IMG/VR virus record: IMGVR_UViG_3300042892_003674
Length of the DNA stretch: 64,000 nucleotides
Source of the DNA: a virus
Lineage: Duplodnaviria; Heunggongvirae; Uroviricota; Caudoviricetes
Direction: 5' to 3' (one strand)
Positions 74 to 38,019 of this stretch are shown here, in pieces (position 1 is the first letter of the stretch; each line of letters begins with the position of its first letter). The position numbers and the translations under genes were made by a program. Under the pieces are notes generated by a model that made no database searches, had not been told where the DNA came from, and saw nothing but the letters and a program-made list of their open reading frames with translations.

Positions 74-505
74 TTATATCTTATCTACTATCTTTATATT
101 TATTCCCCAAATAGGATAATCTAAACCGGTTTTATCATTTATCACTTGGTCTAATGATAAATATCTTAATCCACTTGTAGTATTAAAACAAACGTAAATG
201 TGAGCAGTATCATCTAAATAAGGTAGTAACTCATATCTTCTTTGTAACATCTGTAAAAATGGTATGTAGTAATCTTTTACATCATTCCAATTGAATTTTT
301 GATAACCTACTGCATAGTTTTCTTCAGGTAAACCTAAACTTACGATTATATGGTTCCTCCCTGGATACTTTACTTGATCTCTTATAGATAAACTAACATT
401 ATATCCATCATCTAATAGATAAGCGAGTGAAGTCTCACAGAAGTCTTTTAACTCGTCAACCTCATCTGATTGTAAACTTTCATTAAACTTTTTTAAATGT
501 TTCAT
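74..505 (-). CDS. Orphan member of the N-leader array family (MKHLKKFNE; DFCETSLAYLLDDG; W-x-D-VKD-YYIPFL)
   Basis: Same three motifs as the 16025-27975 paralogs; TAATATATA motif just upstream. Confidence 0.85.
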   Translation of the reverse strand: MKHLKKFNESLQSDEVDELKDFCETSLAYLLDDGYNVSLSIRDQVKYPGRNHIIVSLGLPEENYAVGYQKFNWNDVKDYYIPFLQMLQRRYELLPYLDDTAHIYVCFNTTSGLRYLSLDQVINDKTGLDYPIWGINIKIVDKI

Positions 506-8518: not shown

Positions 8519-8773
8519 ATGATAATTAGAAAATTTAATGAAGAAAATGATAATCATTGGGATGATGATTTAGAAATTGAAAAGGGTGACTTAATAAAAG
8601 TAACCATGAAATTTGAAAACTTAATTGGAGTTGGATTTGTTTACTCTGAACCAGAGGAATCAAATCATTTAATTGTTGATTTATCTTGGCAAAGTGGAGG
8701 TTCAACAGAGTGTATGGAAATTAGTGAATTGCTTGAGACCCCACACACTAAAATAGAAGTTATTAATATATAA
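8519..8773 (+). CDS. Acidic protein with N-leader (MIIRKFNEE)
   Basis: Leader; TAATATATA at 8496. Confidence 0.75.
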   Translation: MIIRKFNEENDNHWDDDLEIEKGDLIKVTMKFENLIGVGFVYSEPEESNHLIVDLSWQSGGSTECMEISELLETPHTKIEVINI

Positions 8774-8795
8774 CCAATAAAAATAAAAATATATT

Positions 8796-8984
8796 ATGAA
8801 ACACATTAAAAAATTTAATGAGGATAATTCACAAACTAACACACAAGAACAAATGAAACAATTAGAAGATAAAATTATTGACTTGCTTGATGAAGCAGGT
8901 GAAAAGTTATCTAAGGATGACTTTGGAATACTTGCAGAGTCTATTATAGATTATATAGATGATATATCAAGAAGTAAAAGATAA
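8796..8984 (+). CDS. Small helical protein with N-leader (MKHIKKFNED)
   Basis: Leader; TAATATATA at 8764. Confidence 0.75.
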   Translation: MKHIKKFNEDNSQTNTQEQMKQLEDKIIDLLDEAGEKLSKDDFGILAESIIDYIDDISRSKR

Positions 8985-9033
8985 AAAAATACTATATTAA
9001 AAAATATATAGTATATAAAAAAATAATATTATT

Positions 9034-9282
9034 ATGATACACATTAAAAAATTTAATGATAAAGTAAATGAGGAATTTGGAGAACCTCTTAAAGATGTAA
9101 TGGGCACTAGAGTAGACCAACTTATAGAATATCTACAAGACTATAAACAAAAATTAGAATCAAGTGAAGATGAAGCTTATTCATTTGAGGATGAGACTGA
9201 AAAAGTAGATAAAATGTGGCAAGATGTATTCTATCCAGTACCTAATGACATCAACAGTAAAAGAAGTTCATTTAATAAATAA
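9034..9282 (+). CDS. Small acidic protein with N-leader (MIHIKKFNDKVNEE)
   Basis: Leader; AAATATATA at 9002. Confidence 0.75.
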   Translation: MIHIKKFNDKVNEEFGEPLKDVMGTRVDQLIEYLQDYKQKLESSEDEAYSFEDETEKVDKMWQDVFYPVPNDINSKRSSFNK

Positions 9283-16000: not shown

Positions 16001-16024
16001 TATGATGATTTAATATATAAGTAT

Positions 16025-16441
16025 ATGATGAGGTATTTAAAAAGTTTTATGGAGTCTGATTTTTATGTTAGGTTGAAAGGTGATGATTTGCAGGATGAAT
16101 TGGATGATGTTTGTGAGCAATTTTTGGCACCATTGGCGGATGATGGGTTTACGTATGAGGTTAGACCTGCTTGGAATGGTGAGTTTGATATAAGGTTATC
16201 TTTTACTGATGGTGGTCGTACGAATAAGTTATATGATTATTCTTTGGTGATGGATAGGTTTATCCCGTTGGTTCGTATGTTATCTAGGAGGTATGATTTA
16301 CATGATACTGTTTATTTTTATAGTACAGAGGTTTATGATATGGATAGGAAATCTTTTACGGTTGGGCAGATATTGAATGATGAGGCGCCGGATTTTTTGG
16401 TTACTACGGTTAAGTTGACGGTTAAGTCGAGGAAAGGTTAG
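16025..16441 (+). CDS. N-leader array paralog 1
   Basis: MRYLKSFMES; VCEQFLAPLADDGF; DRFIPL; TAATATATA at 16011. Confidence 0.85.
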   Translation: MMRYLKSFMESDFYVRLKGDDLQDELDDVCEQFLAPLADDGFTYEVRPAWNGEFDIRLSFTDGGRTNKLYDYSLVMDRFIPLVRMLSRRYDLHDTVYFYSTEVYDMDRKSFTVGQILNDEAPDFLVTTVKLTVKSRKG

Positions 16442-16540
16442 GATTGTGGTGGGACCAATCAGGGGTTCGGGGAGCCGTTGCCTTCGGCAAGTAGTTTGAG
16501 GGTCGTCGGAGTCGTAAACGTGCTGACGCACGTGGGGTTT
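16442..16540. other. GC-rich multi-hairpin non-coding island
   Basis: TGGT/ACCA, TTGCC/GGCAA and ACGTGC/GCACGT stems in an AT-rich genome. Confidence 0.6.
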
Positions 16541-16557
16541 TAAAATAAATTGTAGTG

Positions 16558-17028
16558 ATGAGATACATAAAGAAGTATAACGAAAGTAATTCAGAAGGTT
16601 TAACTGAGGAAGTAATAAAGGATTTCTGTGAGATGAATCTAGCTTATCTAATGGATGATGGTTTAAAGGTTTTGGTTTCACCAGATTATTTTGATTTAAA
16701 GGTTATAGATTATAAGGTGACGTTATCGTTTAGATTATTTGTTAATAAGAGGTGGGGTCAGATAAAGGATCAGGTTATACCATTTTTAACACATTTAAAG
16801 AATGAGTATGATTTAGTAGCAGATTTAGGTAATATGGGGGTTTCTGATTATTCTCAAAAGGTATTTTTAAAGAATAATATAAGGATTGAGATGATTGGTT
16901 CGGTAACTACATATCCTGATTGGTTTAATATAGATGATGTTATATCGGAGAAGATTGTTCCGGCTGGTCGTCTCCAAGACGATTATAAGATTTATACAAT
17001 TCAGTTTAAAATTAAAGGTAAGAAATGA
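16558..17028 (+). CDS. N-leader array paralog 2
   Basis: MRYIKKYNES; DFCEMNLAYLMDDG; WGQIKDQVIPFL. Confidence 0.9.
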   Translation: MRYIKKYNESNSEGLTEEVIKDFCEMNLAYLMDDGLKVLVSPDYFDLKVIDYKVTLSFRLFVNKRWGQIKDQVIPFLTHLKNEYDLVADLGNMGVSDYSQKVFLKNNIRIEMIGSVTTYPDWFNIDDVISEKIVPAGRLQDDYKIYTIQFKIKGKK

Positions 17029-17441
17029 AATACATAAAGACTAGTGAGACATTGAAATCAGAGGCAGATGTTGCTTATCAGAAAAGGATGGAGTTACAGG
17101 AGTTTGCTAATGATTGTTTAGTTTATCTTATAGATGATGAATGGTCGGTATCGGTGTGGGGATTTACTACATCGTTTAAGATTGTTTTGTTATCACCTAG
17201 GTCGGTTAAGAGAAATAGAGTTCATCATGATGATGTTACTTGGTTATCGGTAAAGAATCATGTTATTCCATTTGTTCAGATGTTATCTAATAGGTATCAT
17301 TTGGGTTATGAGGCAAGTTCATCGATTATTAGGATAGAGGCGACTTATTCGGATGATATACATATTAAGGATATAAAACAGTTAGAGGATTTATCGGATG
17401 ATATGTTATTTTATAGTTTTTCGATTGTAGTAAAAAAATAG
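17025..17441 (+). CDS. N-leader array paralog 3
   Basis: MKYIKTSE; FANDCLVYLIDD; WLSVKNHVIPF. Confidence 0.85.
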   Translation: MKYIKTSETLKSEADVAYQKRMELQEFANDCLVYLIDDEWSVSVWGFTTSFKIVLLSPRSVKRNRVHHDDVTWLSVKNHVIPFVQMLSNRYHLGYEASSSIIRIEATYSDDIHIKDIKQLEDLSDDMLFYSFSIVVKK

Positions 17442-17448
17442 GTTAGGT

Positions 17449-17955
17449 ATGAAACATTTGAGAAAGTTTAATGAGAGTATAGATGAGAATGAATTAAGGG
17501 ATTTCTGTGAGATCAATTTAGCTTATTTGTTAGATGATGGTTTTGAGATAATGATTAGTGGTAATAATTTCAGTGGAGATTCTTTTAAAAGTATAAAAAT
17601 AACTAATCCAAGGTCTTTAGATGATCGTCAGGATGGTACGGTAAATTATTTTAAATGGAATGACATTAAAGATCATTTTATACCATTTTTTACACGTTTA
17701 TTAAATCAGTATTCACTTTATGGTAACTTTATAGTGGCGGATGGTATATTGTTTCACTATATTGCACCTATGTATGCTCATGATAGAAGTACTAATTGGT
17801 ATAAATTCTCTGGGTTAAGGACTACAAAGTTGTATAAACCATCTTTAGATAATGTATTAAATGATGAGGTATATGATGATGTAAGTACAATACATAATGG
17901 TAATCATTGTATGAATTACTTATATAGTATTGAATTATTAGTAAAAGAAAAGTAG
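17449..17955 (+). CDS. N-leader array paralog 4
   Basis: MKHLRKFNES; DFCEINLAYLLDDGF. Confidence 0.9.
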   Translation: MKHLRKFNESIDENELRDFCEINLAYLLDDGFEIMISGNNFSGDSFKSIKITNPRSLDDRQDGTVNYFKWNDIKDHFIPFFTRLLNQYSLYGNFIVADGILFHYIAPMYAHDRSTNWYKFSGLRTTKLYKPSLDNVLNDEVYDDVSTIHNGNHCMNYLYSIELLVKEK

Positions 17956-17961
17956 TAAGGT

Positions 17962-18420
17962 ATGAAACATTTAAGAAGGTATAATGAGAGTTTAGATAAA
18001 GATGAGTTAGAGGATTTCGTAGAGAGTTGTTTAGCTTATTTATTGGATGAGGGTTTTAATGTTTTTATTCCTAGATCATCTGGTGATGATTCTGTTGCGA
18101 TTTGGTTAGCTATTTCTAATCAATATTCTACTAATTCAACTTCATTCACTTGGGATCAGATAAAGGATCATTACATACCGTTATTGAAGTTATTATCTAA
18201 TAGGTATGATATAATTGGATTTGGTGAGCCGAGTAGAGATGGTCGTTCTATTGAGATGGATTCGACTGCTCAGATAAGATTTAGATTACAACCGGAATAT
18301 AGTAGTGATGCGTTTAGGGATTTTCCGTTATACAAGGTGATGAATGATACTTTATTTGGTTCTTATTCGTATGAGCCAAGTTTATATTCGGTGGGTATTA
18401 TGATTAAAGAAAAAAGATAG
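17962..18420 (+). CDS. N-leader array paralog 5
   Basis: MKHLRRYNES; CLAYLLDEGF. Confidence 0.9.
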   Translation: MKHLRRYNESLDKDELEDFVESCLAYLLDEGFNVFIPRSSGDDSVAIWLAISNQYSTNSTSFTWDQIKDHYIPLLKLLSNRYDIIGFGEPSRDGRSIEMDSTAQIRFRLQPEYSSDAFRDFPLYKVMNDTLFGSYSYEPSLYSVGIMIKEKR

Positions 18421-18422
18421 GT

Positions 18423-18935
18423 ATGAAACATTTAGTACGAAGTACTCTTTACGGAGGTAAAGTAAGAAGATTCAATGAAGGTTTGTCTTCTAATGAATTT
18501 GATGAGTTAAAAGATTTTAGTGAAAGTTGTTTAGCTTATTTATTGGATGAGGGTTTTGAGCTTGAGTTGGTGGATAGATATGGTCGTGATTCAAATGACC
18601 CTTCGTATGAGATTGACTCGGATTACTTTTGGATTGATCTTTATGGTCCGTTTATTACTCAGCCTGATATGTATGGTGCAGTTCCTAATGATAGAAGTTA
18701 TAGTTGGAATCAGATAAAAGATTATTATATTCCATTTCTTCAGTTATTAAAGGCGAGGTATGTATTAGTAGATGATGAAAGAAGTTATAAAGGAGATGTG
18801 GTTTACTTTAAGATACTAGAAGGCGCAGATGTTGATACGGCATTTAAAGAGTTTAAACTTGACGAGGTTATAGGAGATAAGATTACATTAGATAGTATCT
18901 TTTCAGTATCAATAAAAGTAAGTAGTAAGATATGA
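18423..18935 (+). CDS. N-leader array paralog 6 (10-aa insertion in leader)
   Basis: MKHL[VRSTLYGGKV]RRFNE. Confidence 0.9.
   Translation: MKHLVRSTLYGGKVRRFNEGLSSNEFDELKDFSESCLAYLLDEGFELELVDRYGRDSNDPSYEIDSDYFWIDLYGPFITQPDMYGAVPNDRSYSWNQIKDYYIPFLQLLKARYVLVDDERSYKGDVVYFKILEGADVDTAFKEFKLDEVIGDKITLDSIFSVSIKVSSKI
18433..18464. mobile_element. 28-bp double-hairpin insertion flanked by TA
   Basis: TA-GTACGAAGTACTCTTTACGGAGGTAAAG-TA. Confidence 0.55.
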
Positions 18936-19459
18936 AACATTTGAGAAAGTTTAGTACGAAGTACTCTCTGCTAGAACAGAGTAATGAGAGTTATACTCAG
19001 CAAGATTTAGATGAGTTAAAAGAGTTTTGTGATGATCACTTATCATATTTGATTGATGAGGATTATAAGGTTTCTGTTCAAGATTTTGAGACAAATGCTG
19101 GTAGTGTATTACAGGTTGTTGTTAGACCACCGAAGGTTATGAGAAAGAATAATTGGGCAACAAGATTAAAAACGAATTTAATTGAGGAAGAGTTGGGAAC
19201 ACCTTTTTCACATTTCAAGGATAGGTTGATACCATTTGTTTATATGTTATTGAAGGATTATCGTTTGATAACCAATGAAGAGATGGATAGAATGGAATTA
19301 GGTCATGATGAGGGTGGTATGGGTTTTGCGATGCCTAATCCTAATAGTAACATATTAGATACGAAAATGGTACGTGTTAGTTCTTTAGAACATTTAGAAC
19401 AGGTTGAAGATAATCTAATGGTTTCAACATTTTATATAAGAATAAAAAAGAAAGATTAG
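18932..19459 (+). CDS. N-leader array paralog 7 (10-aa insertion in leader)
   Basis: MKHLRKF[STKYSLLEQS]NES. Confidence 0.9.
   Translation: MKHLRKFSTKYSLLEQSNESYTQQDLDELKEFCDDHLSYLIDEDYKVSVQDFETNAGSVLQVVVRPPKVMRKNNWATRLKTNLIEEELGTPFSHFKDRLIPFVYMLLKDYRLITNEEMDRMELGHDEGGMGFAMPNPNSNILDTKMVRVSSLEHLEQVEDNLMVSTFYIRIKKKD
18952..18983. mobile_element. 28-bp double-hairpin insertion flanked by TA
   Basis: TA-GTACGAAGTACTCTCTGCTAGAACAGAG-TA. Confidence 0.55.
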
Positions 19460-19461
19460 TT

Positions 19462-21162
19462 ATGAGAAAGTTTTTATTAACTATATTATTAATGTTAGCT
19501 ACAATTGCCGTTACAGCTCAAAGTGTTACCGCTCCTCCAGCAACATCATATAATCAAAATACTTCAAATCAAAGTGCTACGGGATTTTCGGTATCAGGAT
19601 TTGTACCGACATCTACTTTATTAGTTACTGTTGGGTTAGTTAATCCTCCGTCAGGTACTACTTTAAGATTTTCGACGACATCAGGAGTAACTGCGAGCAC
19701 AGGATATGCAATGACATCTAATTTTACTAGAATTAGTTTTACAGGCCTTCAAGCAAATGTAAATACAGTTCTAGCATCACTTTTAGTAAACACAGGTTCA
19801 ACACCTGGGAATTTATATATAGCAGTTACTGCAACAGAAAATCCGGCAGGTTATTTTTATTTACCGACAAATGGTCACTTTTATCGACCAATCGCCGCGG
19901 GAGCAACTTATACCAATGCAAGAGCTGCTGCATTGAATACGACATTTAGAGGTCAGCAGGGATATTTAGTAACTATCACTTCTGCTGATGAAGATTTGTT
20001 TATCTTTAACAACGTTCCTCAATCTCAAATATGGTTTGCATTAACAGATGAAGGAGTAGAAGGACAGTGGAGAATTGATGCTGGTCCAGAAGCCGGTACA
20101 TTAATCAAGACATCTAATGGTCAGACAGCAGGTAACATTGCAGGTCAGTATAATAATTGGGCAGGTGGAGAACCTAATAACTCTGGTAATGAAGATTATG
20201 CAGTAACAAAGTGGAATGGTTCTCAATGGAATGACTTACCTAACAGTTTTTCATGTCCTTATGTAATTGAATATGGTACATGGTCTGATCCTGCAAATCA
20301 AACTTTTACAAATTTCTATACAGGATTCGTAACTCATCAAATAGCGTGTAGTCCTGCAACCTCACCAACAACTCCTAACGGAGTTAATGGCTCTAGATCA
20401 TTAGCAGGAACAGTTTCTTTATCAGCAACGACAGCAGCGGGTACGACTGTAGATTGGTATGCTAATGCAACAGGTGGTAATGTACTTTCTGGAGGTTCTG
20501 GAACTTTATCATTTACGACTCCTAGTATTTCAGAAACTAAAACATATTACGCTCAAGCTAGGAATTCAACGACAGGATGTGTTAGTTCATCAAGAACTGC
20601 TGTGGTGGCTACTGTAAATTACCCAACACCATTTACATACTCAGGCACTATTAATAGTTCTTTAGGAGCTGGAGTACCAAATATTGCAGTTAAGGTTTAC
20701 TATAAAACAAAGGCAGGATCTACATATACATTGTTACAAACATATACGACAGATAATTTTGGTATATTTTCAATTTCAACTTCGCTAGATATTTCAAGTT
20801 ATGACTTTCAAATAGTTATTGATAGCATACCTATTACATCTCCTTCTGTATCCGATGCATTAATATTTAATCAAAAGGTATTATTTCAAACGTTTGATGC
20901 AAAGGATTATTATAGAATGAATACCAATGGTAATTCTAATTTAACAGTCGCTGATATATTTTTAATCTATAGAAGAATTAATGGTACTTCATTTTCAGTA
21001 CCAGTATATAGATTATTTACACAAACCGAATGGAGTATTATTAATGCATCGACTGCAAATTTAACAGCCTCATATACAGGCACACAAACTATAACTTTAA
21101 CTAACCCAACAGCAGGTGGTAATTCAACATTCTACCTAATTAAAACAGGATTCGCTAACTAA
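19462..21162 (+). CDS. Secreted C-type lectin / Ig-like domain protein
   Basis: Signal peptide; GHFY..YLVTITSADE..WAGGEPNN..WND..YVIEY; VDWY..TPSISETKTYY Ig-like; dockerin-like NTNGNSNLTVAD. Confidence 0.85.
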   Translation: MRKFLLTILLMLATIAVTAQSVTAPPATSYNQNTSNQSATGFSVSGFVPTSTLLVTVGLVNPPSGTTLRFSTTSGVTASTGYAMTSNFTRISFTGLQANVNTVLASLLVNTGSTPGNLYIAVTATENPAGYFYLPTNGHFYRPIAAGATYTNARAAALNTTFRGQQGYLVTITSADEDLFIFNNVPQSQIWFALTDEGVEGQWRIDAGPEAGTLIKTSNGQTAGNIAGQYNNWAGGEPNNSGNEDYAVTKWNGSQWNDLPNSFSCPYVIEYGTWSDPANQTFTNFYTGFVTHQIACSPATSPTTPNGVNGSRSLAGTVSLSATTAAGTTVDWYANATGGNVLSGGSGTLSFTTPSISETKTYYAQARNSTTGCVSSSRTAVVATVNYPTPFTYSGTINSSLGAGVPNIAVKVYYKTKAGSTYTLLQTYTTDNFGIFSISTSLDISSYDFQIVIDSIPITSPSVSDALIFNQKVLFQTFDAKDYYRMNTNGNSNLTVADIFLIYRRINGTSFSVPVYRLFTQTEWSIINASTANLTASYTGTQTITLTNPTAGGNSTFYLIKTGFAN

Positions 21163-21246
21163 AAATTTACTATTTTTACTGTTAAGTTGAAGATGGTTTA
21201 ATGTTTTCTACGTTTTATATATAAGAGTTAAAAGAAAGATTAGTTT

Positions 21247-21702
21247 ATGAAACATTTAAGAAAGTTCAATGAGGGGTTAAAAGAAGAGTTACAGGATTTC
21301 TGTGAGACTTACCTAGCTTATTTGATTGATGAGGGGTTTAAAGTAAGGATTTCAAAGTTTGAAGGAGATGACTTTCATCAGATAATGTTGGGTTATGCAA
21401 CAGACGGTTCGGGATATGGTAATAATAATCGTTTATGGTCAGAGATGAAGGATCAGGTTTTGCCGTTCTTACATTTTTTATTTAAGGATTACGAATTGTA
21501 TTGGGATAACGGTGTAGAAGCACCGATGGGTATTATTTATCATTTAATGGGTGGTTCTGGTACATCTGGTTCTCTTAGACAAAGTAGTCTAACATTGAAG
21601 CAGATAAATGATTTACCTGATGATACTGAGATAGCTACTTTATTTATTAGGGTTATTAAAAAGGAAGAAAAGGTTGAAAAAGCTTGGTTTAGAAAATTTT
21701 AA
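21247..21702 (+). CDS. N-leader array paralog 8
   Basis: MKHLRKFNEG; DFCETYLAYLIDEGF. Confidence 0.9.
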   Translation: MKHLRKFNEGLKEELQDFCETYLAYLIDEGFKVRISKFEGDDFHQIMLGYATDGSGYGNNNRLWSEMKDQVLPFLHFLFKDYELYWDNGVEAPMGIIYHLMGGSGTSGSLRQSSLTLKQINDLPDDTEIATLFIRVIKKEEKVEKAWFRKF

Positions 21703-21716
21703 ATAATATATACATT

Positions 21717-22163
21717 ATGAAGTATTTAAGAAGTATTTTTGAAGAGGTCAATCAAAATGAGTATGAAGAGTTAAAAGATTTCTGTGAGATGTATTTAGCT
21801 TACTTATTAGATGATGGTGATTGGCGAATAGACATTTCTATGAGAACTCAGGTTTATCCACATACTGGTTTTTATGACGTTATGATTTGGAGAAGATATG
21901 AGACGAATGCAGATGGATCACATAGTTATCCTAATTGTACTTGGGATGATGTATCTGATTATTTTATACCATTTTTCAAAGTTTTGATAGATAATTATGA
22001 GTTAGTGCCTAGTGTTTCTCGTAGTATGAAAACGGGAGAGCTTGTTGATAATTTAGTGGAGTTTTCAGGGGCAAATGTACCAAAGGAAAAGATATTAGGT
22101 AATTTGATACCGGGTAATCAACCAGCTAGAAAAATAAGTTTTAAAGTAAAACGTAAGATATGA
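21717..22163 (+). CDS. N-leader array paralog 9
   Basis: MKYLRSIFEE; TAATATATA at 21704. Confidence 0.9.
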   Translation: MKYLRSIFEEVNQNEYEELKDFCEMYLAYLLDDGDWRIDISMRTQVYPHTGFYDVMIWRRYETNADGSHSYPNCTWDDVSDYFIPFFKVLIDNYELVPSVSRSMKTGELVDNLVEFSGANVPKEKILGNLIPGNQPARKISFKVKRKI

Positions 22164-22612
22164 GGTATTTAAAGAAGATTTTCGAGAACGATTTATATAA
22201 ACAGGTTGATTCGGATGAGTTAAAAGATTTCTGTGAGACTTACTTAGCTTATTTATTGGACGATACTAGTTTTAAGATAGAGGTTATTGATACAGAAAAG
22301 TGGGATTCATATACTATCTGGTTGGGTAAGACTTTAGTAGATCGTCGTATTCAGACTTTTAGTTGGGATGACATTAAAGATTATTATATTCCATTTGTTA
22401 CGATTTTATCAAGAGAATATGATTTGAATGATATAGATTTAGATCAGAGAAGTTCGAGTATTATTATCAATTTTATGTCTGGTAATCAATTATTTGTTAC
22501 TGCGTCTGGTATTGAAGATTGGGATGGTAGACTTACAAAAAGACCAGATTTTTATAACGGTAATGGTATCAAAGAGATTGGTATTGTAGTAAAAAATACT
22601 ATAAAGATATGA
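22160..22612 (+). CDS. N-leader array paralog 10
   Basis: MRYLKKIFEN; WDDIKDYYIPF. Confidence 0.9.
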   Translation: MRYLKKIFENDLYKQVDSDELKDFCETYLAYLLDDTSFKIEVIDTEKWDSYTIWLGKTLVDRRIQTFSWDDIKDYYIPFVTILSREYDLNDIDLDQRSSSIIINFMSGNQLFVTASGIEDWDGRLTKRPDFYNGNGIKEIGIVVKNTIKI

Positions 22613-23067
22613 GGTATTTAAAAACATTTGAGTCTATTGATTTAGAGAAAGATTTAAGAGATTTTTGTGAGACTTATCTAGCTTATTTGTTAGATGGTGA
22701 TTTTGAATTATCTGTTATTTGGCAGGGTCATAATCCTTTTCTGGTCCCATATAACCGTTATAATATAAATCTAGTTAAGTTAAATGATTATGGAGCTACT
22801 GGATTTACTTGGAATGAGGTTAAAGATTACTATATTCCTTTTTTACATATGTTGAATAAAGATTATGAGATAATGGATGAAGGTGAAGCAAGTAGAAACG
22901 CGGGGCAGTGGGATGTTCCTTGTATTTGTTTATATAATGGTAGTCAAAACTTTTGTGTTTCGGTTAAGGATATTTTATCTGGTGAGCCTTTACCTGGTAG
23001 ATATGATGATAGACCTTTATTAGAGATTACACTTCAGGTTGCGTTCAAAAATAAATTGGTAGAATGA
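22609..23067 (+). CDS. N-leader array paralog 11
   Basis: MRYLKTFES; WNEVKDYYIPFL. Confidence 0.9.
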   Translation: MRYLKTFESIDLEKDLRDFCETYLAYLLDGDFELSVIWQGHNPFLVPYNRYNINLVKLNDYGATGFTWNEVKDYYIPFLHMLNKDYEIMDEGEASRNAGQWDVPCICLYNGSQNFCVSVKDILSGEPLPGRYDDRPLLEITLQVAFKNKLVE

Positions 23068-23945
23068 GATATTTAAAAAGATTTAATGAGTCAGTTGATT
23101 TAAAATCACAACTACGTGATTTTAGTGAGTCTTATCTAGTTTATTTGTTAGATGATGGTTATACGGTAAATATTACACAAGCAAGTGATCATTCAGGTGG
23201 TGGTGGTTTGCCACCAAATGCATTTTTGATAAAATTGAGTAATGACATTGATTTTACTTGGTTAGATGTTAAAGAGTCATATATTCCATTTTTACATATG
23301 TTAAATAGAGACTACAATATAGTAGATCAGTCTATAATGATTTATGATTATAATGATGATACTGAGTTTGGTATTGAAACAATTTTATCTGGTAATCCTT
23401 TACCATTTGATAATAAAAGTTTAATAGAGATTTTAGTTTGGGTCACTTTTGATAAACCTATTAAAGAGTCTGTTGAATTGAAGACAGATGATGTAGAACA
23501 TTATTTGGTTGAGTTATTGGATTCTGGATTTGATGATGTCAGGGTTACTAAAAGTGCTGATAGATATAAGGATGTTGAACCAATGACTGCAATTTCTATG
23601 GAGAGAAAGCTTACTACTGATGAGTGGCAATCTATTTTAAGAACTGGTATTATATATGAGAATGTGATAATTGGTGTGAGATCTGAACCGATGAGAGTAT
23701 TTACTTCTAGTCAATTTAAGAAGCCAGTTCCTTTATCTATTTTTAAATCTGATATATTGAATCAGGTTGAGTTTTTCGCACAGGATGCTGCAGATAAGAT
23801 TTTATTGAGTTTATCTGATAAGTTTGTTAGTAAGAAGATTGTGATGTCTTTTAAGGCAGGTGCAGGTCAGGTTCAACGATATAATTTTGGTGACATTTCG
23901 ATTAGATTACAGATTATTTTAACAGAAAAGGAAGATACAAAATGA
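23064..23945 (+). CDS. N-leader array paralog 12, two domains joined at IKE-S
   Basis: Second YLVELLDSGF motif after KPIKESV. Confidence 0.9.
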   Translation: MRYLKRFNESVDLKSQLRDFSESYLVYLLDDGYTVNITQASDHSGGGGLPPNAFLIKLSNDIDFTWLDVKESYIPFLHMLNRDYNIVDQSIMIYDYNDDTEFGIETILSGNPLPFDNKSLIEILVWVTFDKPIKESVELKTDDVEHYLVELLDSGFDDVRVTKSADRYKDVEPMTAISMERKLTTDEWQSILRTGIIYENVIIGVRSEPMRVFTSSQFKKPVPLSIFKSDILNQVEFFAQDAADKILLSLSDKFVSKKIVMSFKAGAGQVQRYNFGDISIRLQIILTEKEDTK

Positions 23946-24370
23946 AATATTTAAAGAGGATTTTTGAGAATTTAGATAAGGATGAGTTACAAGATTTCTG
24001 TGAGATGAACTTAGCTTATTTATTGGATAATGAAGATTTTAGGATAGACATTGAATACTTTGATGACTTGATAGGTCAGTATTTGGTTGTTATTAAATTG
24101 GTTAAAATGGTTGAGCTTAGTGCTGGTGGAAGAATGACGACGATGTATCAGTGGCAAGAGGTTAAAGATTATATTGTACCGTTTATTGTACAATTGAATA
24201 AGAGTTATAGTTTGAATACAACTTGGAATGATAATAAAGGTTCGATTACTATTCGTCAGGAACAAGAGTGGAGAAACTTTTCTTATGAGAAGTTTATGAG
24301 GGTTGTTGATAATTGGTATGAAGATGATGATGAGATAAGATATATTGAAATAATATTAGATAATAAATGA
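23942..24370 (+). CDS. N-leader array paralog 13
   Basis: MKYLKRIFEN. Confidence 0.9.
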   Translation: MKYLKRIFENLDKDELQDFCEMNLAYLLDNEDFRIDIEYFDDLIGQYLVVIKLVKMVELSAGGRMTTMYQWQEVKDYIVPFIVQLNKSYSLNTTWNDNKGSITIRQEQEWRNFSYEKFMRVVDNWYEDDDEIRYIEIILDNK

Positions 24371-24840
24371 AACACTTAAAAAAATACAATGAAGCGGTTG
24401 GTGGTGTGAATGGAGTTAATGATTTCTGTGAGGGTTACTTAGCAAATATTTTAGATGATGATTCTTATCAGTTTAATGTAACAGAGCAAATGTCTGGCCA
24501 TAGGGTATCACCATCGTATTATTTTAGTTTATACAAAGTAGGTAATGGTGCATATGATATAATTCAGTGGGATGAGATTAAGGATCAGATTATACCATTT
24601 TTACATATGTTGATAAGAGAGTATAGTATTGAACCTATGAGACTTATAGATCAATCGAAGCTAACCTATCAAACAAAAAACGTTTATATAGATGATAATC
24701 CTAGAAACAGAACGATTCAGTTTAACAGGTATTTACCGGATACTTATAGTTCTGATCTTTATTATATGGATGTGAGGAATGTTATAAAGGACGAGGATGT
24801 TCCTGAAAAATTCTATCGAATACAATTACAATTTTACTAA
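24367..24840 (+). CDS. N-leader array paralog 14
   Basis: MKHLKKYNEA. Confidence 0.9.
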   Translation: MKHLKKYNEAVGGVNGVNDFCEGYLANILDDDSYQFNVTEQMSGHRVSPSYYFSLYKVGNGAYDIIQWDEIKDQIIPFLHMLIREYSIEPMRLIDQSKLTYQTKNVYIDDNPRNRTIQFNRYLPDTYSSDLYYMDVRNVIKDEDVPEKFYRIQLQFY

Positions 24841-24856
24841 TATAATATATAGTTCT

Positions 24857-25324
24857 ATGAAATACTTAAAACCATTTAACGAAGCCGTAACACAAGACGA
24901 CATTGAATTATGTTGTGTTGATTTATTTGATGATGGATTTGAATTAAATGGTTATAATAAGACTGGTAAAACAATAATTCAGTTAGTGAAGAATATTACT
25001 TCTTCATTACCAGACGATCAATCTAATATAGTTGTAGTTGATGAACATTCAAAGAATTATAGACAAGGTACAATAACTATATCAGGTAGAAATTTTGATC
25101 ACGTTATTGCAAAAGAAAGATCTAGTGATCTACCATTTACTGAGAATGAGAATAAACTTATAAGTCAAGTTAGTGATGCTGCAAATCTATTGAGACATTA
25201 TAGTAGTACTAATGGTGGGACTGATCGTGTTGTTATTACTATAACAAGTAGAGGAATACAGAATCCTATGAACTTTGAATATGAAAGATACTTAACACAA
25301 ATAAATATATTATTCTATATATGA
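24857..25324 (+). CDS. N-leader array paralog 15 (LCCVDL subfamily)
   Basis: Start moved to MKYLKPFNEA; TAATATATA at 24843. Confidence 0.9.
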   Translation: MKYLKPFNEAVTQDDIELCCVDLFDDGFELNGYNKTGKTIIQLVKNITSSLPDDQSNIVVVDEHSKNYRQGTITISGRNFDHVIAKERSSDLPFTENENKLISQVSDAANLLRHYSSTNGGTDRVVITITSRGIQNPMNFEYERYLTQINILFYI

Positions 25325-25830
25325 GATACTTAAAAGGGTTTAATGAAGCTATTGAACAAGACAACATTGATTTATGTTGTGTTGATTTATATGATGATGG
25401 ATTTCAGTTACTAGGTTATAACAAGACTGGTAATACCTTGATTTCATTACAGAAGAAAATAGTTAGTCAATTAGATCAGTGGGATGGTCACACAGGAACA
25501 GATACTAGAGCAGGAGTTATGTGGGATGAACATTTAAGTAAGTATCAACCGGGAACTATTACTATTACTGGTGATAATTTTGATAAGGTTGAAACTAGTT
25601 TTAGACAAACTTGTGGTTGGGATAGAACTAGACCATTACCATTTACTGATGATGAGAATAAACTTATAAATCAAGTTACTGATGCGGCTAGTATATTGAC
25701 ACATTATAGTGATACTGAGGTAAAAAGAAAAAGAGTTGAAATACAAATTTCTAGTAGAGGTTTACAAAATCCTATGAACTTTGAATATGATAAATACTTA
25801 ACAATATTAAAGGTAACATTCTTCTTATGA
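25321..25830 (+). CDS. N-leader array paralog 16 (close duplicate of 15)
   Basis: LCCVDL, GYNKTG, LPFT..ENKLI, QNPMNFEY shared. Confidence 0.9.
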   Translation: MRYLKGFNEAIEQDNIDLCCVDLYDDGFQLLGYNKTGNTLISLQKKIVSQLDQWDGHTGTDTRAGVMWDEHLSKYQPGTITITGDNFDKVETSFRQTCGWDRTRPLPFTDDENKLINQVTDAASILTHYSDTEVKRKRVEIQISSRGLQNPMNFEYDKYLTILKVTFFL

Positions 25831-26768
25831 GATACTTAAAGAGATTTAATGAGGCAATTGAACCAGATGAGATAAAAGACTTCTGTGAGCAGTATCTAGC
25901 TTATTTGTTAGATGATGGTTATGCTTTAGCTTTTAGAGAATCTGGTAGAATAACTCAAGTAGACTTTGTTAAACCAAAGGAAAATCCTTTACACGGTAGA
26001 TGGAGTCCTGGTTTTGGTGGACCGGTTGATTGGATGGATTGGGATCATATAAAAGATAGTTTTATTCCTTTTTTAAAGATGTTAGATAAGGAGTATGATG
26101 TTAAGGATAATCTTATAACTTTTCAATGTCCTAGCGCGATACAAATTCAAATATCTTTTCAGGATGTTATTGATGATAAAGTAAAAGATATACTTCATGA
26201 CAAACTTACATTAGATGCTAGAGATAGAATTAGTTCTGTTAGAATAAATGTTATCGATCATAGTGTTAAGGATTATGCTTGGCAGGTTAAAGAAGCTAAA
26301 GAAGATTGGAGAAGAAACTTCAGTGATGATGAGTTACAAGAAGTTTGTGATACATTTTTACCTTATCTTTATGATGAGGGTTTTGTTGTACACACCACGG
26401 TGCCTACTTATTTTATGTTTAAGAAAAACATTATTACACTTTGGAAAGAACAAGAAAAAGGTGATGGTCGAGGATTAGAGACTCTTCCATTTTATTGGCA
26501 TGAGATAAAAGATAGATTTCTACCACTTTTTGATTATTTGAATAAGAATTATCCGTTGGGTAAGGTTAGATTGGTTCATTATTATAATTCTTGGGAAAGA
26601 AAAGAGAACAAGAAAGAAGTGGTTTTTAAATCGGATAATGATAAAGAATCTTGGAGTGGACTTCCATTTAGTAAGTTTGAGGAGATTATGTCGAGAGATG
26701 CCGCTTATAGAAGACCAATGAAGATTGGTGAGATAATAATAGAAGTACAAAATTTAGATGAGTTATGA
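25827..26768 (+). CDS. N-leader array paralog 17, two domains joined at VKE-A
   Basis: Second VCDTFLPYLYDEGF and WHEIKDRFLPL. Confidence 0.9.
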   Translation: MRYLKRFNEAIEPDEIKDFCEQYLAYLLDDGYALAFRESGRITQVDFVKPKENPLHGRWSPGFGGPVDWMDWDHIKDSFIPFLKMLDKEYDVKDNLITFQCPSAIQIQISFQDVIDDKVKDILHDKLTLDARDRISSVRINVIDHSVKDYAWQVKEAKEDWRRNFSDDELQEVCDTFLPYLYDEGFVVHTTVPTYFMFKKNIITLWKEQEKGDGRGLETLPFYWHEIKDRFLPLFDYLNKNYPLGKVRLVHYYNSWERKENKKEVVFKSDNDKESWSGLPFSKFEEIMSRDAAYRRPMKIGEIIIEVQNLDEL

Positions 26769-27154
26769 GATATATAAAGTTATTTGAGGGTTTTAAAGAT
26801 GATTTACTTGGATTTACTCAGGACCGCTTAGCTTATCTTATGGATGATGGATTTGATCTTACAACAAATGACACACAGAATGGTTACTGGCGTGAATATA
26901 ATGTTGATTGTGGAAAAATTTCAATAGTTAAACGTTCAGGTTTCACTTGGGAGGAAATTACTGATAGATTCTCACCGTATATTTATATGTTGAATAAAGA
27001 ATATAGTATTTTAGAAATAGTATTTCATCAGAGTGGTGGAAGACAACAACAATATGATACTAGAAAAGATATAGAAGAACTTGTAAGTGGTGAATCGGAT
27101 CAGTATCTTACCAATAAGTTGTATTGGATGATAACAATAATAGTAAACAAATGA
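26765..27154 (+). CDS. N-leader array paralog 18
   Basis: MRYIKLFEG; LAYLMDDGF. Confidence 0.9.
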   Translation: MRYIKLFEGFKDDLLGFTQDRLAYLMDDGFDLTTNDTQNGYWREYNVDCGKISIVKRSGFTWEEITDRFSPYIYMLNKEYSILEIVFHQSGGRQQQYDTRKDIEELVSGESDQYLTNKLYWMITIIVNK

Positions 27155-27975
27155 GATATATAAAATTATTTGAAGTATTTGATAGATGGTCAAGAGATCA
27201 GAAATCTGAACTACAAGATTATTGTGAGACTAATCTAGCTTATCTTATGGATGATGGTTTTAAAATAAGAGTTGGTCAAAACATTGATAAAACAGTTCGT
27301 AATGTTACAATTCAAATAACTAAAAAAGATTCCGTGGATACTAGTGATATAGATAGAGAAGATTTCTTTTGGGAAGATGTTAAGGATCAAATTATACCAT
27401 TTGTTTTGAGATTAGAAAATAAGTATGATATTGAAAAGATTAGAATTTTAGGTGAGGATAATTATCGTTATATGAGAGATAATTTTGAATTTGAATTGGA
27501 TACACTACCTATTTACAAAGTATCTTATATAGATATATTTTTATCAGGTGAGAAAGATGTACTTAATGAGAGTATGTCACACAAAGAAGAGATTGAAGAC
27601 TTTTGTGATACATATTTATCTTATCTTACTGATGAAGGATTCTATATTGAGTATGAAGAGCTTTATGGTGGTCATTGCACCAATGTAACAATTAGACATT
27701 CAAAGAGAGAGGATAGTAGGTACTCTCATGATTTTAGTTGGGATGAGGTTAAAGATCGTTTCATACCATTCTTACAAATGTTATCAAAGGAATATAAACT
27801 ATTTAACTTCCATCATGAAGATTTTAATTGTAAAAGAAATCAAGTGGTTTGTATGAGAAGGTTAGATGATCTTTTATCTAGTGATTATTATAGTTATGAT
27901 GATGTTATTAAAGATACTATAAATGCAGATTTTCTCTTCTACATAAAGTTAAAGGTTGGTGGTAAACTTACCTAA
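27151..27975 (+). CDS. N-leader array paralog 19, two domains joined at LNE-S
   Basis: Start moved to MRYIKLFE; second DFCDTYLSYLTDEGF. Confidence 0.9.
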   Translation: MRYIKLFEVFDRWSRDQKSELQDYCETNLAYLMDDGFKIRVGQNIDKTVRNVTIQITKKDSVDTSDIDREDFFWEDVKDQIIPFVLRLENKYDIEKIRILGEDNYRYMRDNFEFELDTLPIYKVSYIDIFLSGEKDVLNESMSHKEEIEDFCDTYLSYLTDEGFYIEYEELYGGHCTNVTIRHSKREDSRYSHDFSWDEVKDRFIPFLQMLSKEYKLFNFHHEDFNCKRNQVVCMRRLDDLLSSDYYSYDDVIKDTINADFLFYIKLKVGGKLT

Positions 27976-29941: not shown

Positions 29942-30312
29942 ATTCCTAATTGTTTGAGTTTTCTTTCTCTTTCTAATTCTATGAAGTTTTTTAGTAAAAA
30001 AGGATACTTTTTAATATATTTTGTTTCTAAAATCTCATTCGCTTCTATATCTTTATGAAGAAGTAAATTTAGAGATCTGCATATTTCAGTTTTCCATTTT
30101 GGATCTTGTATGTGACCCCACGGAGTTTCTGCAGTTAGTACTCTTCTTAAATATGTAAATCTTTTATTAGTACAACCAGGATAAGTAACTACACGAATAT
30201 ATTCAGCGATTTGAATACCGAATAGTAATTTTATATTACGAATGTATATTACATCTAAAGGGAATGTGGCTCTAGAGTCTGACTTTTTAGTTTTCCATTT
30301 AGAATTTATCAT
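29938..30312 (-). CDS. Hypothetical protein with C-terminal tag (ERERKLKQLGI)
   Basis: ORF, tag. Confidence 0.75.
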   Translation of the reverse strand: MINSKWKTKKSDSRATFPLDVIYIRNIKLLFGIQIAEYIRVVTYPGCTNKRFTYLRRVLTAETPWGHIQDPKWKTEICRSLNLLLHKDIEANEILETKYIKKYPFLLKNFIELERERKLKQLGI

Positions 30313-30361
30313 AGGTCTTATATTTGATATTTTATATATAGTTTATAAAAATATAACAAAT

Positions 30362-36326: not shown

Positions 36327-37153
36327 TAGACATAGATTATTCAAACGGAAAGATTAAGATAAACACCGGTGATTTAGCTGGATTATTCACTAATCTACCT
36401 TTAAAATTTAAAATAAAGAAAGTTATTTCAAAAGAAATAGTTTGGGAAACTGACTTATATAGTTTTATGTGGGCGGAATTTGGTACAAATGAGATCAATG
36501 ATGTTATCGTAGAAGATAGTTTAGGTAATTTTGTTTATCAGTATCACTGGGATGTAATTCAACACGGTTCTATCTTTTATAAATCATTGTGGTTATATTG
36601 TAAGTCATTGATAAATCGTGGTGTGAAACCACGTGGAGTTGTTGTGGGAACACATGATGGAGAGTTTGGTGAATGGGTTCCATTAGTGAGAAACTTTATG
36701 TCTGATATGTTATTAGTAGAAGCATCACAGAAACAATTTGATAAACTTCATCAGAACTTTATTGATAAACCAGGTATTATATTTCTAAATGATTTGATTA
36801 CAACTGATGGCTCTGATGTTGAGTTCTTTGAAGGTGGTGCTGGTTACACGAATACTGTGGTTGAGAGAGTTATTAGACATTGGGAAACAGAGGAAGTTCA
36901 TTCATCAAAAAGAACATCGACTAGTTTTAATACTTTGATTGAGAGCTATGGTAAGGTTGATTGGTTACATTTAGATGTAGAGGGATTGGATGCAAAGTTA
37001 TTGATGTCATTAAAGGAAGAGAATATACCTAATTTTATAATCTTTGAAGATTATAATTTGGACACTGAAGAGTTTAGTAAAGTATCTACTTTTTTTAAGG
37101 ATAGAGGGTTTAGATTACATTCGGAAGGTGGAATATGTATGGCTTTTAAATAA
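36323..37153 (+). CDS. FkbM-family methyltransferase
   Basis: VVGTHDG, LLVEA, LHLDVEGLD, IIFE. Confidence 0.8.
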   Translation: MIDIDYSNGKIKINTGDLAGLFTNLPLKFKIKKVISKEIVWETDLYSFMWAEFGTNEINDVIVEDSLGNFVYQYHWDVIQHGSIFYKSLWLYCKSLINRGVKPRGVVVGTHDGEFGEWVPLVRNFMSDMLLVEASQKQFDKLHQNFIDKPGIIFLNDLITTDGSDVEFFEGGAGYTNTVVERVIRHWETEEVHSSKRTSTSFNTLIESYGKVDWLHLDVEGLDAKLLMSLKEENIPNFIIFEDYNLDTEEFSKVSTFFKDRGFRLHSEGGICMAFK

Positions 37154-37535
37154 AAAACCATCCAGATGGGTTATGTGATATATAATATTCTGATAAGGAT
37201 AAATATAATCTAACTTCTTCTTCATCAGCACCAGTCATATCCATTATTTTATGCTTAATAGTAGGATATTCAATCTTTATTTTATATAAAGATTCTTGAA
37301 TTCTATTAAATAAGTTAGATCTCATCTCAACTCTTTTAATGAATTCATTTATTGAATTGGATAAATTGATTGATGAACTATCTGCCATATCAATAGTAAT
37401 CTCACAAGTTTTATTATCTGTGTGAAACTTAATTATAAAGTTATCTTCGTCGATAAAATCAACGAAACACATTTCAATATAATCTTTATCAATTATATCT
37501 TGGTCTATATTTTCAAATAGTTTTATGTATTTCAT
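37146..37535 (-). CDS. N-leader protein (MKYIKLFEN), distant array relative
   Basis: IEMCFVDFIDE. Confidence 0.8.
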   Translation of the reverse strand: MKYIKLFENIDQDIIDKDYIEMCFVDFIDEDNFIIKFHTDNKTCEITIDMADSSSINLSNSINEFIKRVEMRSNLFNRIQESLYKIKIEYPTIKHKIMDMTGADEEEVRLYLSLSEYYISHNPSGWFFI

Positions 37536-37536
37536 A

Positions 37537-38019
37537 TTATATTTCGTTTTTAACTATTGTAATTGAAATTGATATAAAGTCTCTACTCCATACTTTTTCA
37601 TCTAATACATGAAAGTAAGTATCATTTGCAGTAACTGCGTCTTGTCTAATAATCTTCTCGATCTTTGCACCATTCCATCTTCTGTCTAACAAAGCTAGAA
37701 GTGTTTCAAAACAGTCAGTTATCTTATCTTTAAATTCTTCGGACTTATTGTTCTGTACTGTTCTTTGGAAATCTACTACATCTTCATCTTGGTCCTTATG
37801 TCTTACAAGTCTAATATAAACAACATTACATTGATTATAACTTTCAGCCATACGAGTTGTATAATCATTGATACGTGACTTAACTCTTTGTTGTAATAGA
37901 ATTTGTGGTGAAAATCCTTCATCTATCAAATCAACAAAAATCATTTTAATTGTCTCTCTGAATTGATCTAGTTCTTCTTTACCTTCTTTTAACGATTCAA
38001 GTGTTTTTACGTATCTCAT
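37537..38019 (-). CDS. N-leader protein (MRYVKTLES), distant array relative
   Basis: MIFVDLIDEGF. Confidence 0.8.
   Translation of the reverse strand: MRYVKTLESLKEGKEELDQFRETIKMIFVDLIDEGFSPQILLQQRVKSRINDYTTRMAESYNQCNVVYIRLVRHKDQDEDVVDFQRTVQNNKSEEFKDKITDCFETLLALLDRRWNGAKIEKIIRQDAVTANDTYFHVLDEKVWSRDFISISITIVKNEI

Follow-up and report, generated by a model that had tools for sequence, protein, structure and literature searches.

A 19-gene array of small acidic proteins sharing a portable N-terminal leader: candidate head-loaded cargo of an uncultured phage

Introduction

Bacteriophage T4 loads its internal proteins IPI-III, together with Alt, into the prohead by means of a capsid targeting sequence (CTS) of about 10-20 residues; the protease gp21 removes the CTS, and ejection then carries the proteins into the cell (PMC8442874, PMC7411985). 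The T4 internal-protein targeting sequence is MKTYQEFIAE (PMC8442874). Proteases of this kind cleave after Glu, removing the targeting propeptides of ejected proteins (PMC7411985, PMC5694885), and related proteases of giant phages cleave after A/S-x-E (PMC5694885). The internal proteins of T-even phages have been described as highly diverse defence proteins with the conserved CTS alone in common (PMC3012670). Here we describe a 64,000-nucleotide stretch of Caudoviricetes DNA (IMG/VR record IMGVR_UViG_3300042892_003674; hereafter the window) in which 19 plus-strand open reading frames (ORFs) of 129-313 amino acids (aa), spanning 16025-27975, form an array of a single protein family. Its members share an N-terminal leader that we read, by analogy, as a propeptide of roughly nine residues and a counterpart of the T4 CTS.

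The locus resembles the T4 system in having one tag on otherwise unrelated bodies and a putative propeptide, about 10 residues long, whose final Glu is followed by a small residue. Genes for a gp21-type protease and for a gp23-type capsid protein are known from relatives that carry the family or the leader, though neither gene lies in the window. The likeness between the leader and the CTS is one of pattern and not of statistically scored homology: the CTS has its Glu at position 10, whereas the leader has it at position 9, preceded by Phe-Asn. T4 has three unrelated genes of this kind, but about 20 paralogs stand here in one array, some of them two-domain proteins with internal cut-like sites. 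Finally, the T4 internal proteins are described as highly basic (PMC8442874), whereas the array bodies are acidic and without detectable similarity to any Pfam family.

Two other systems invite comparison. The giant phage SPN3US has a family (family B) of 20 head paralogs (gps 83, 138-154, 161 and 237), most of them consecutively numbered; its head protease is T4-related and cleaves after Glu, and the eight head proteins reported to be cleaved include no family B member (PMC5694885). Family B and the phiKZ inner-body proteins (Pfam PF12699) share with our array the giant-phage setting and a large paralog family whose number varies between phages. However, the SPN3US members in the region that we tested are 276-498 aa long by their annotated coordinates, compared with 130-175 aa here, and SPN3US differs in host and phage lineage from the array phage, which we take to be a Bacteroidota phage with a T4-type capsid. 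Poxvirus-type accordions likewise consist of tandem, same-strand paralogs of a presumed host-interaction gene, but their copies are recent and nearly identical, whereas the array paralogs are old, at most 53% identical and positionally conserved between relatives.

An array of one virus-only protein family

ORF listing, motif mapping and a family profile (an alignment of the array copies and 57 metagenome homologs) agree on a same-strand, coupled array of 19 genes of one family (g01 to g19; Table 1), as an original prediction made from the window had proposed. Most genes are coupled to the next by a 4-nt ATGA stop/start overlap. Motif mapping also bears out the three common features, namely the leader M-[KR]-[HY]-[LI]-[KR]-x-F-N-E, the helix ELxDFCExxLAYLLDDGF and a second helix beginning WxxIKDxxIPF. 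The true starts of g01, g02, g15 and g19 are probably the leader Met codons at 16028, 16558, 24857 and 27151, respectively. Although every array gene is matched by the profile, the 22 domain copies first counted resolve into 19 full copies, two partial ones and a doubtful one: g17 and g19 have two domains each, g15 and g16 are similar to the family over residues 1-45 only (hhalign probability 96%), and g12 is matched in its first half only, the second half reaching an hhalign probability of 20%. The recurring DNA block that had been noticed is real, since GATTTCTGTGAG-N6-TTAGCTTAT occurs 13 times at three or fewer mismatches compared with 0 in 100 shuffles; a 59-nt DNA block recurs 20 times.

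The family is virus-only or nearly so: it is almost confined to uncultured large phages, and cellular genomes hardly contain it. Searching 1.8 billion representative proteins with the profile returned 1,536 clusters at E ≤ 0.001, of which 1,065 also reached E ≤ 1e-10, and the metagenome clusters (at 50% identity) include two- and three-domain forms. A pattern scan of 185,579 species genomes gave a single match, on a 2.4-kb contig of a metagenome-assembled genome, and ESM Atlas neighbors are all viral (100%) and labeled only "hypothetical protein". No match was found in 50,697 GenBank phage records either by tblastn with three family members or by megablast with the array. Ten array proteins searched against Pfam and PHROGs yielded sub-threshold noise only, there was no match to Pfam PF12699 among the array proteins searched, and the IMG/VR relatives G002-G006, found via a flanking gene, contain no family member.

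All 22 copies are acidic, with isoelectric points (pI) of 4.4-5.9 and net charges of -1 to -12. Structure prediction and a Foldseek search, both proposed with the original prediction, were run: the AlphaFold2 model of g05 is a confident alpha/beta domain (predicted local distance difference test, pLDDT, 79.6; predicted template modeling score, pTM, 0.75), but no convincing structural relative emerged, Foldseek finding no match in PDB and BFVD at E ≤ 0.001. Kinship with ferredoxin-like alpha/beta sandwiches (S6 permutant, MotB/PomB, tail terminators) was considered and dropped, the best Z-score of the wide VIA-align comparison (5.8) being at background.

A portable leader

Across 239 diverse members, the best-conserved stretch is the leader, M-[KR]-[HY]-L-[KR]-[KR]-F-N-E-[SAG], with Glu at position 9 in 209 members, Phe at position 7 in 191, Asn at position 8 in 194 and Ser, Ala or Gly at position 10 in 173. 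Synonymous codons vary within it, indicating that the constraint acts on the protein. The leader is predicted to be disordered ahead of helix 1 (pLDDT below 50 at residues 2-8 of g05 and 1-11 of g19), and all strict matches to it in six-frame translation lie at the N-terminus of an ORF (19 of 19 in the window and 8 of 8 in G010, a related huge-phage contig). The leader is portable between unrelated proteins: in the window it heads bodies that the family profile does not recognize (at 9034, 47542(-), 47170(-) and 63656), and in G010 it heads a HAD-like protein. The leader-bearing ORF at 8796 has a weak profile match, restricted to the leader region (residues 2-32). A literature search with leader strings found no paper. 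As a separate observation, the region 8519-9282 holds three tiny leader-bearing ORFs (84, 62 and 82 aa) with very acidic bodies, each with a TAATATATA-type motif (see below) upstream.

Some leaders contain insertions, as would be expected of a discarded peptide. The leaders of g06 and g07 have 30-nt in-frame inserts with a TA duplication and a hairpin (AGTAC-GAA-GTACT). Among the related arrays (designated by L numbers), the g06 orthologs in L019, L017 and L012 are without the 30-nt insert, the g04 ortholog in L004 has an identical insert at the same leader position (about 2773), and the g06 ortholog in L013/L012 has a different insert of 10 aa directly after N-E-A. The 30-nt insert looks like a tiny mobile element landing in leaders.

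In multi-domain members, the MKHLKK part of the leader has usually decayed at the junction between domains, while hydrophobic-x-E-[SAG] stays, often as L/I-N-E-S. Of 53 distinct domain junctions, many of them orthologous, 42 retain the pattern [LIVFM]xE[SAG], compared with 4.3 expected from control windows. In the g19 model, pLDDT falls below 50 at residues 1-11 and 138-140 alone, the latter being L-N-E of the junction. Judged by its sequence, the junction motif is a putative cut site.

Capsid and protease genes in related phages

The IMG/VR contigs that carry the family or the leader (G001 and G007-G011) are 79-191 kb long and 20-40% complete according to CheckV. A Gp23-type capsid protein is encoded in G001, G009 and G010 (E 1e-27 to 2e-30), and an ORF of about 740 aa adjoining the capsid gene matches phrog_207, the head maturation protease (E 4e-29 and 7e-28), and more weakly, below the cut-off, Pfam S77. 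The N-terminal 47 residues of the capsid proteins of three contigs (G010: L063 16530-18266; L071; L072) are nearly identical, and in all three the last Glu before the conserved core is that of S-I-N-E-N-A, a hydrophobic-N-E sequence like that of the leader; on this single observation, S-I-N-E-N-A is a possible maturation site. The G010 capsid protein had no match by phmmer among PDB sequences, so an alignment of its propeptide with that of T4 gp23 is a rough guide only.

Promoter-like motifs

The motif TAATATATA occurs 15 times in the window, compared with 6.6 expected, and nearly all occurrences are just upstream of a start codon (TAATATATA-type positions include 16011, 21704, 24843, 28625, 34099, 43674, 54359 and 63643). 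All leader-gene units begin behind TAATATATA or the close variant TATATAAG (those of g01, g08, g09 and g15 and those at 505, 8519, 8796, 9034, 39301, 47542 and 63656), and so does the collagen-like fiber gene. In G010 the same motif stands ahead of the portal (phrog_213, E 2e-62), protease, capsid and fiber-like genes. The Bacteroidota-type motif TAnnTTTG, in contrast, is upstream of 11 other genes but of none of 20 leader genes, and the two motifs look like two promoter classes. From its position, the TAATATATA-type motif is probably a phage promoter, and a late one judging by the genes behind it. A scan for sigma-70 promoters gave chance-level results, and the T4 motif TATAAATA is not positioned ahead of the array genes.

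Evolution of the array

Related arrays of 3 to 18 family genes are found on metagenome contigs from lakes and other waters, and the comparison of copy number between strains that had been suggested shows that they differ by whole genes. Positional orthologs of the window genes in L013, L019, L017/L020, L010 and L012 are 53-91% identical, whereas paralogs within the window are 26-53% identical (26-40% in most pairs; 53% in the closest pair, g15/g16). Since the relatives carry the same paralogs in the same order and at higher identity than that between paralogs, the expansion is old and its order has been kept. Whole genes are nevertheless gained, lost, swapped or fused between strains. There is no counterpart in L013, L019 or L017 of g02, g04, g07 or a non-family lectin gene that interrupts the array; each relative has one of g15 and g16, whereas the window has both; and two to four members per relative are absent from the window. 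The orthologs of g01 and g03 have two domains in L013, and that of g17 has three in L010.

Selection on the array genes is purifying but relaxed. The pairwise ratio of nonsynonymous to synonymous substitution rates (dN/dS) is 0.2-0.6 for array genes compared with 0.03-0.18 for flanking genes, a 2-5-fold difference, and never exceeds 1. When pooled by region, dN/dS is 0.22-0.30 for the leader, both helices and the final strand and 0.31-0.47 for the loop and the C-terminal half. Similarly, orthologs differ at 13-21% of positions in the former regions, where the beta1-beta2 loop region and the C-terminal half reach 37-40%; pooled dN/dS in this contrast is 0.23 compared with 0.43-0.47. The combination of gene-content differences and raised dN/dS is as expected for host-facing accessory proteins.

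The predicted constant scaffold with variable regions is therefore upheld by both measures, and the label hypervariable suits the differences between paralogs, but each paralog is kept between strains with dN/dS below 1. Programmed hypervariation, as by a diversity-generating retroelement, was dropped on the same grounds. An invariant array under uniform purifying selection, which had been named as speaking against the original prediction, was found in part: whole genes vary between strains, yet every gene is under purifying selection. The accordion-like character proposed for the array was not supported, as there are no recent duplicates and the paralogs recur in unchanged order in related phages. 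As a side observation, the codons TTC (Phe), GAG (Glu) and GCT (Ala) of the DFCE..LAY block (16621-27243) are more uniform than array codon usage predicts (p = 5e-4, 6e-3 and 4e-3, respectively), which could reflect gene conversion or a nucleotide-level signal.

Proposed function and alternative explanations

We give an even chance to the explanation that the array encodes cargo that is loaded into the head, cleaved after Glu and ejected, all built on one scaffold with differing surfaces. Under this explanation, the array would encode some 20 small, acidic alpha/beta proteins, all of them old and diverged paralogs of one another. Phage-type TAATATATA-like promoters would drive their transcription along with that of structural genes, and the leader would serve to dock them to the scaffolding core of the procapsid. 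A T4-type (S77/phrog_207) head maturation protease would then cleave after the leader Glu and would release single domains from two-domain members by cutting at the [LIV]-x-E-[SA] junctions. Once mature, the proteins would remain in the head and be ejected with the DNA into the Bacteroidota host, where different host targets would be bound by the loop and C-terminal regions in which the proteins differ. The most likely job of the proteins would be to neutralize defence or other host proteins, and an anti-defence role is reasonable by likeness to IPI*. Late expression, cleavage, ejection and the nature of the targets are steps that we infer, as is head loading, which is made plausible by the leader logo, the leader on unrelated proteins, the junction motif, the predicted disorder, the capsid and protease genes of relatives and the shared promoter-like motif. 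A broader version, about which we are more tentative and which we think somewhat likelier to fail than to hold, is that in huge freshwater Bacteroidota phages with T4-type heads a very large proteome is loaded into the capsid via one portable propeptide, with the two- and three-domain members as small polyproteins that the head protease would split into single domains within the capsid, and the array as the largest module of an injected effector set far bigger than that of any known phage.

Several observations weigh against cargo loading. The protease and capsid genes were seen in relatives only, and neither lies in the window. T4 gp21 prefers Leu or Ile at P3, where the leader mostly has Phe or Tyr. 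The acidity of the family (pI 4.4-5.9) contrasts with the highly basic IPI-III, and tblastn with three members found no cultured phage with the family. Because many junctions are orthologous, the number of independent events is smaller than 53. The TAATATATA motif has an AT-rich, almost palindromic sequence, and only the genes that it precedes point to its timing. With respect to an anti-defence role, no similarity to anti-defence proteins was found in Pfam and PHROGs (PADLOC and dedicated anti-defence libraries were not searched), and no arms-race signature was detected, given that dN/dS never exceeds 1.

The strongest competitor, which we nonetheless consider unlikely, holds that the array encodes unpackaged cytoplasmic accessory or host-takeover proteins, the N-terminal peptide serving some other purpose, such as docking to a common partner from phage or host, turnover control or efficient initiation of translation. 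Small size, acidity, variability between strains and relaxed selection are what many non-virion phage accessory proteins show. Docking or turnover leaves unexplained, however, why hydrophobic-x-E-[SAG] alone survives at the junctions while MKHLKK decays and why the junction is a disordered linker, and a pure effect on translation start is unlikely because synonymous codons vary. A further point against it is that the upstream motif of leader genes is common to structural genes and is not of the host-type promoter class. The leader, protease and promoter evidence would fit equally well if the proteins were internal to the head but structural, forming a scaffold, an inner-body-like element or a DNA-organizing mass for a very large capsid. 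The 20-member head paralog family of SPN3US and the phiKZ-like inner-body paralogs, which vary in number (PMC5694885), offer precedents for such a role. We think it improbable, since members are individually dispensable (g02, g04 and g07 are missing in relatives, and g15 and g16 alternate) and acidic proteins are unlikely to condense DNA. Moreover, the family profile (run with --max on six-frame ORFs) had no match in the 120-165 kb region of SPN3US, where the best E was 0.16; this region starts within gp143, and gp138-142, gp83, gp161 and gp237 are not all covered.

The explanation that fares worst is a genomic accordion, in which recent, repeated amplification would accompany an ongoing arms race. 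The tandem, same-strand, coupled genes, the recurring DNA blocks, which could drive unequal recombination, and the over-conserved TTC, GAG and GCT codons of one block are all in keeping with it. Nevertheless, the divergence of even the closest pair (with most pairs at 26-40%), the 53-91% identity at which relatives retain these paralogs in unchanged order and a dN/dS below 1 throughout largely refute it, and we regard it as very improbable indeed.

CTS-type cargo and head paralog arrays are already known; the novelty lies in the family and its size, in a distinct leader, in the sites at the junctions and in their occurrence in huge Bacteroidota phages whose heads are T4-type. Should the leader prove to be a tag for capsid loading and cleavage, the injected proteome of uncultured huge phages would be readable from sequence alone, and the family, with about 1,500 clusters and no annotation anywhere, would be larger than any other known family of ejected phage proteins. 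With many binding surfaces on one scaffold, it would then also constitute a natural library, useful for finding inhibitors of Bacteroidota defences, and its junction sites would provide a first example of phage cargo processed in the manner of a polyprotein. Even with unpackaged proteins, a large virus-only family with a conserved linear motif has been defined, and an array of 19 genes is shown to be capable of age and stability where a transient amplification might have been supposed.

Features of the window

Table 1. Array genes and related features of the window, with E-values from the family profile.
Feature	Coordinates	Strand	Length (aa)	Remarks
Outlying full family member	74..505	-	143	TAATATATA upstream; E 1e-38
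g01	16025..16441	+	138	Leader MRYLKSFMES from 16028; TAATATATA at 16011-16019; E 9e-30
g01-g02 spacer	16442..16554	+		GC-rich, hairpin-rich; no Rfam match
g02	16555..17028	+	157	ATG at 16558; no ortholog in related arrays examined
g03	17025..17441	+	138	Ortholog in relatives fused to following domain
g04	17449..17955	+	168	Sole ortholog found in L004 (84% identity)
g05	17962..18420	+	152	Modeled copy, alpha/beta fold
g06	18423..18935	+	170	30-nt in-frame hairpin insert within leader (about 18435-18464)
g07	18932..19459	+	175	Related 30-nt insert within leader (about 18953-18982); missing from L013, L019, L017
Non-family lectin gene	19462..21162	+	566	Secreted C-type lectin / CHU_C-type Ig protein
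g08	21247..21702	+	151	TATATAAG 29 nt upstream
g09	21717..22163	+	148	TAATATATA at 21704-21712; best-conserved member, 83-90% to orthologs
g10	22160..22612	+	150	
g11	22609..23067	+	152	
g12	23064..23945	+	293	First half clear family domain, second half doubtful; junction I-K-E-S
g13	23942..24370	+	142	
g14	24367..24840	+	157	
g15	24857..25324	+	155	Length from leader Met; subfamily; TAATATATA at 24843-24851
g16	25321..25830	+	169	g15 paralog, 53% identical
g17	25827..26768	+	313	Two full domains; junction V-K-E-A
g18	26765..27154	+	129	
g19	27151..27975	+	274	Length from leader Met; two full domains; junction L-N-E-S, residues 138-141
Leader-bearing gene	37146..37535	-		Family-like by eye (leader and EMCFVDFIDEDNF helix); not matched by profile
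Weak family member, leader-bearing	37537..38019	-		E 4e-5

From the gene content of the window we read its source as a very large phage of a Bacteroidota host; a protein identical to g04 is recorded on a contig of 328,661 bp. At a GC content of about 30%, the window encodes a collagen-like fiber protein (with many PHROG tail-fiber matches), a Dam-type methylase, UDG, an ankyrin protein, a DUF285 protein and an endonuclease I with a type IX secretion sorting domain. The lectin gene, unrelated to the family, matches Pfam Ig_7 and Lectin_C; its absence from L013, L019 and L017 coincides with that of g07, and its 35-nt upstream region is a duplicate of that of g08. A 956-aa DUF285/beta-propeller gene (30242-33112) is missing from L013 and L019, where its two neighbors adjoin. 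Rfam identifies a tRNA at 628-729 (37.5 bits) that is not called by ARAGORN.

The 3' ends of the array genes mostly encode a hydrophobic strand followed by a Lys-rich tail, whose A-rich codons are also the upstream region of the next overlapping start codon; this double use may have arisen as a side effect of translational coupling in a host that makes little use of Shine-Dalgarno pairing. The spacer between g01 and g02, whose GC richness stands out from the rest of the genome (about 30% GC), contains several short stable hairpins (e.g., TTGCC-TTCG-GGCAA).

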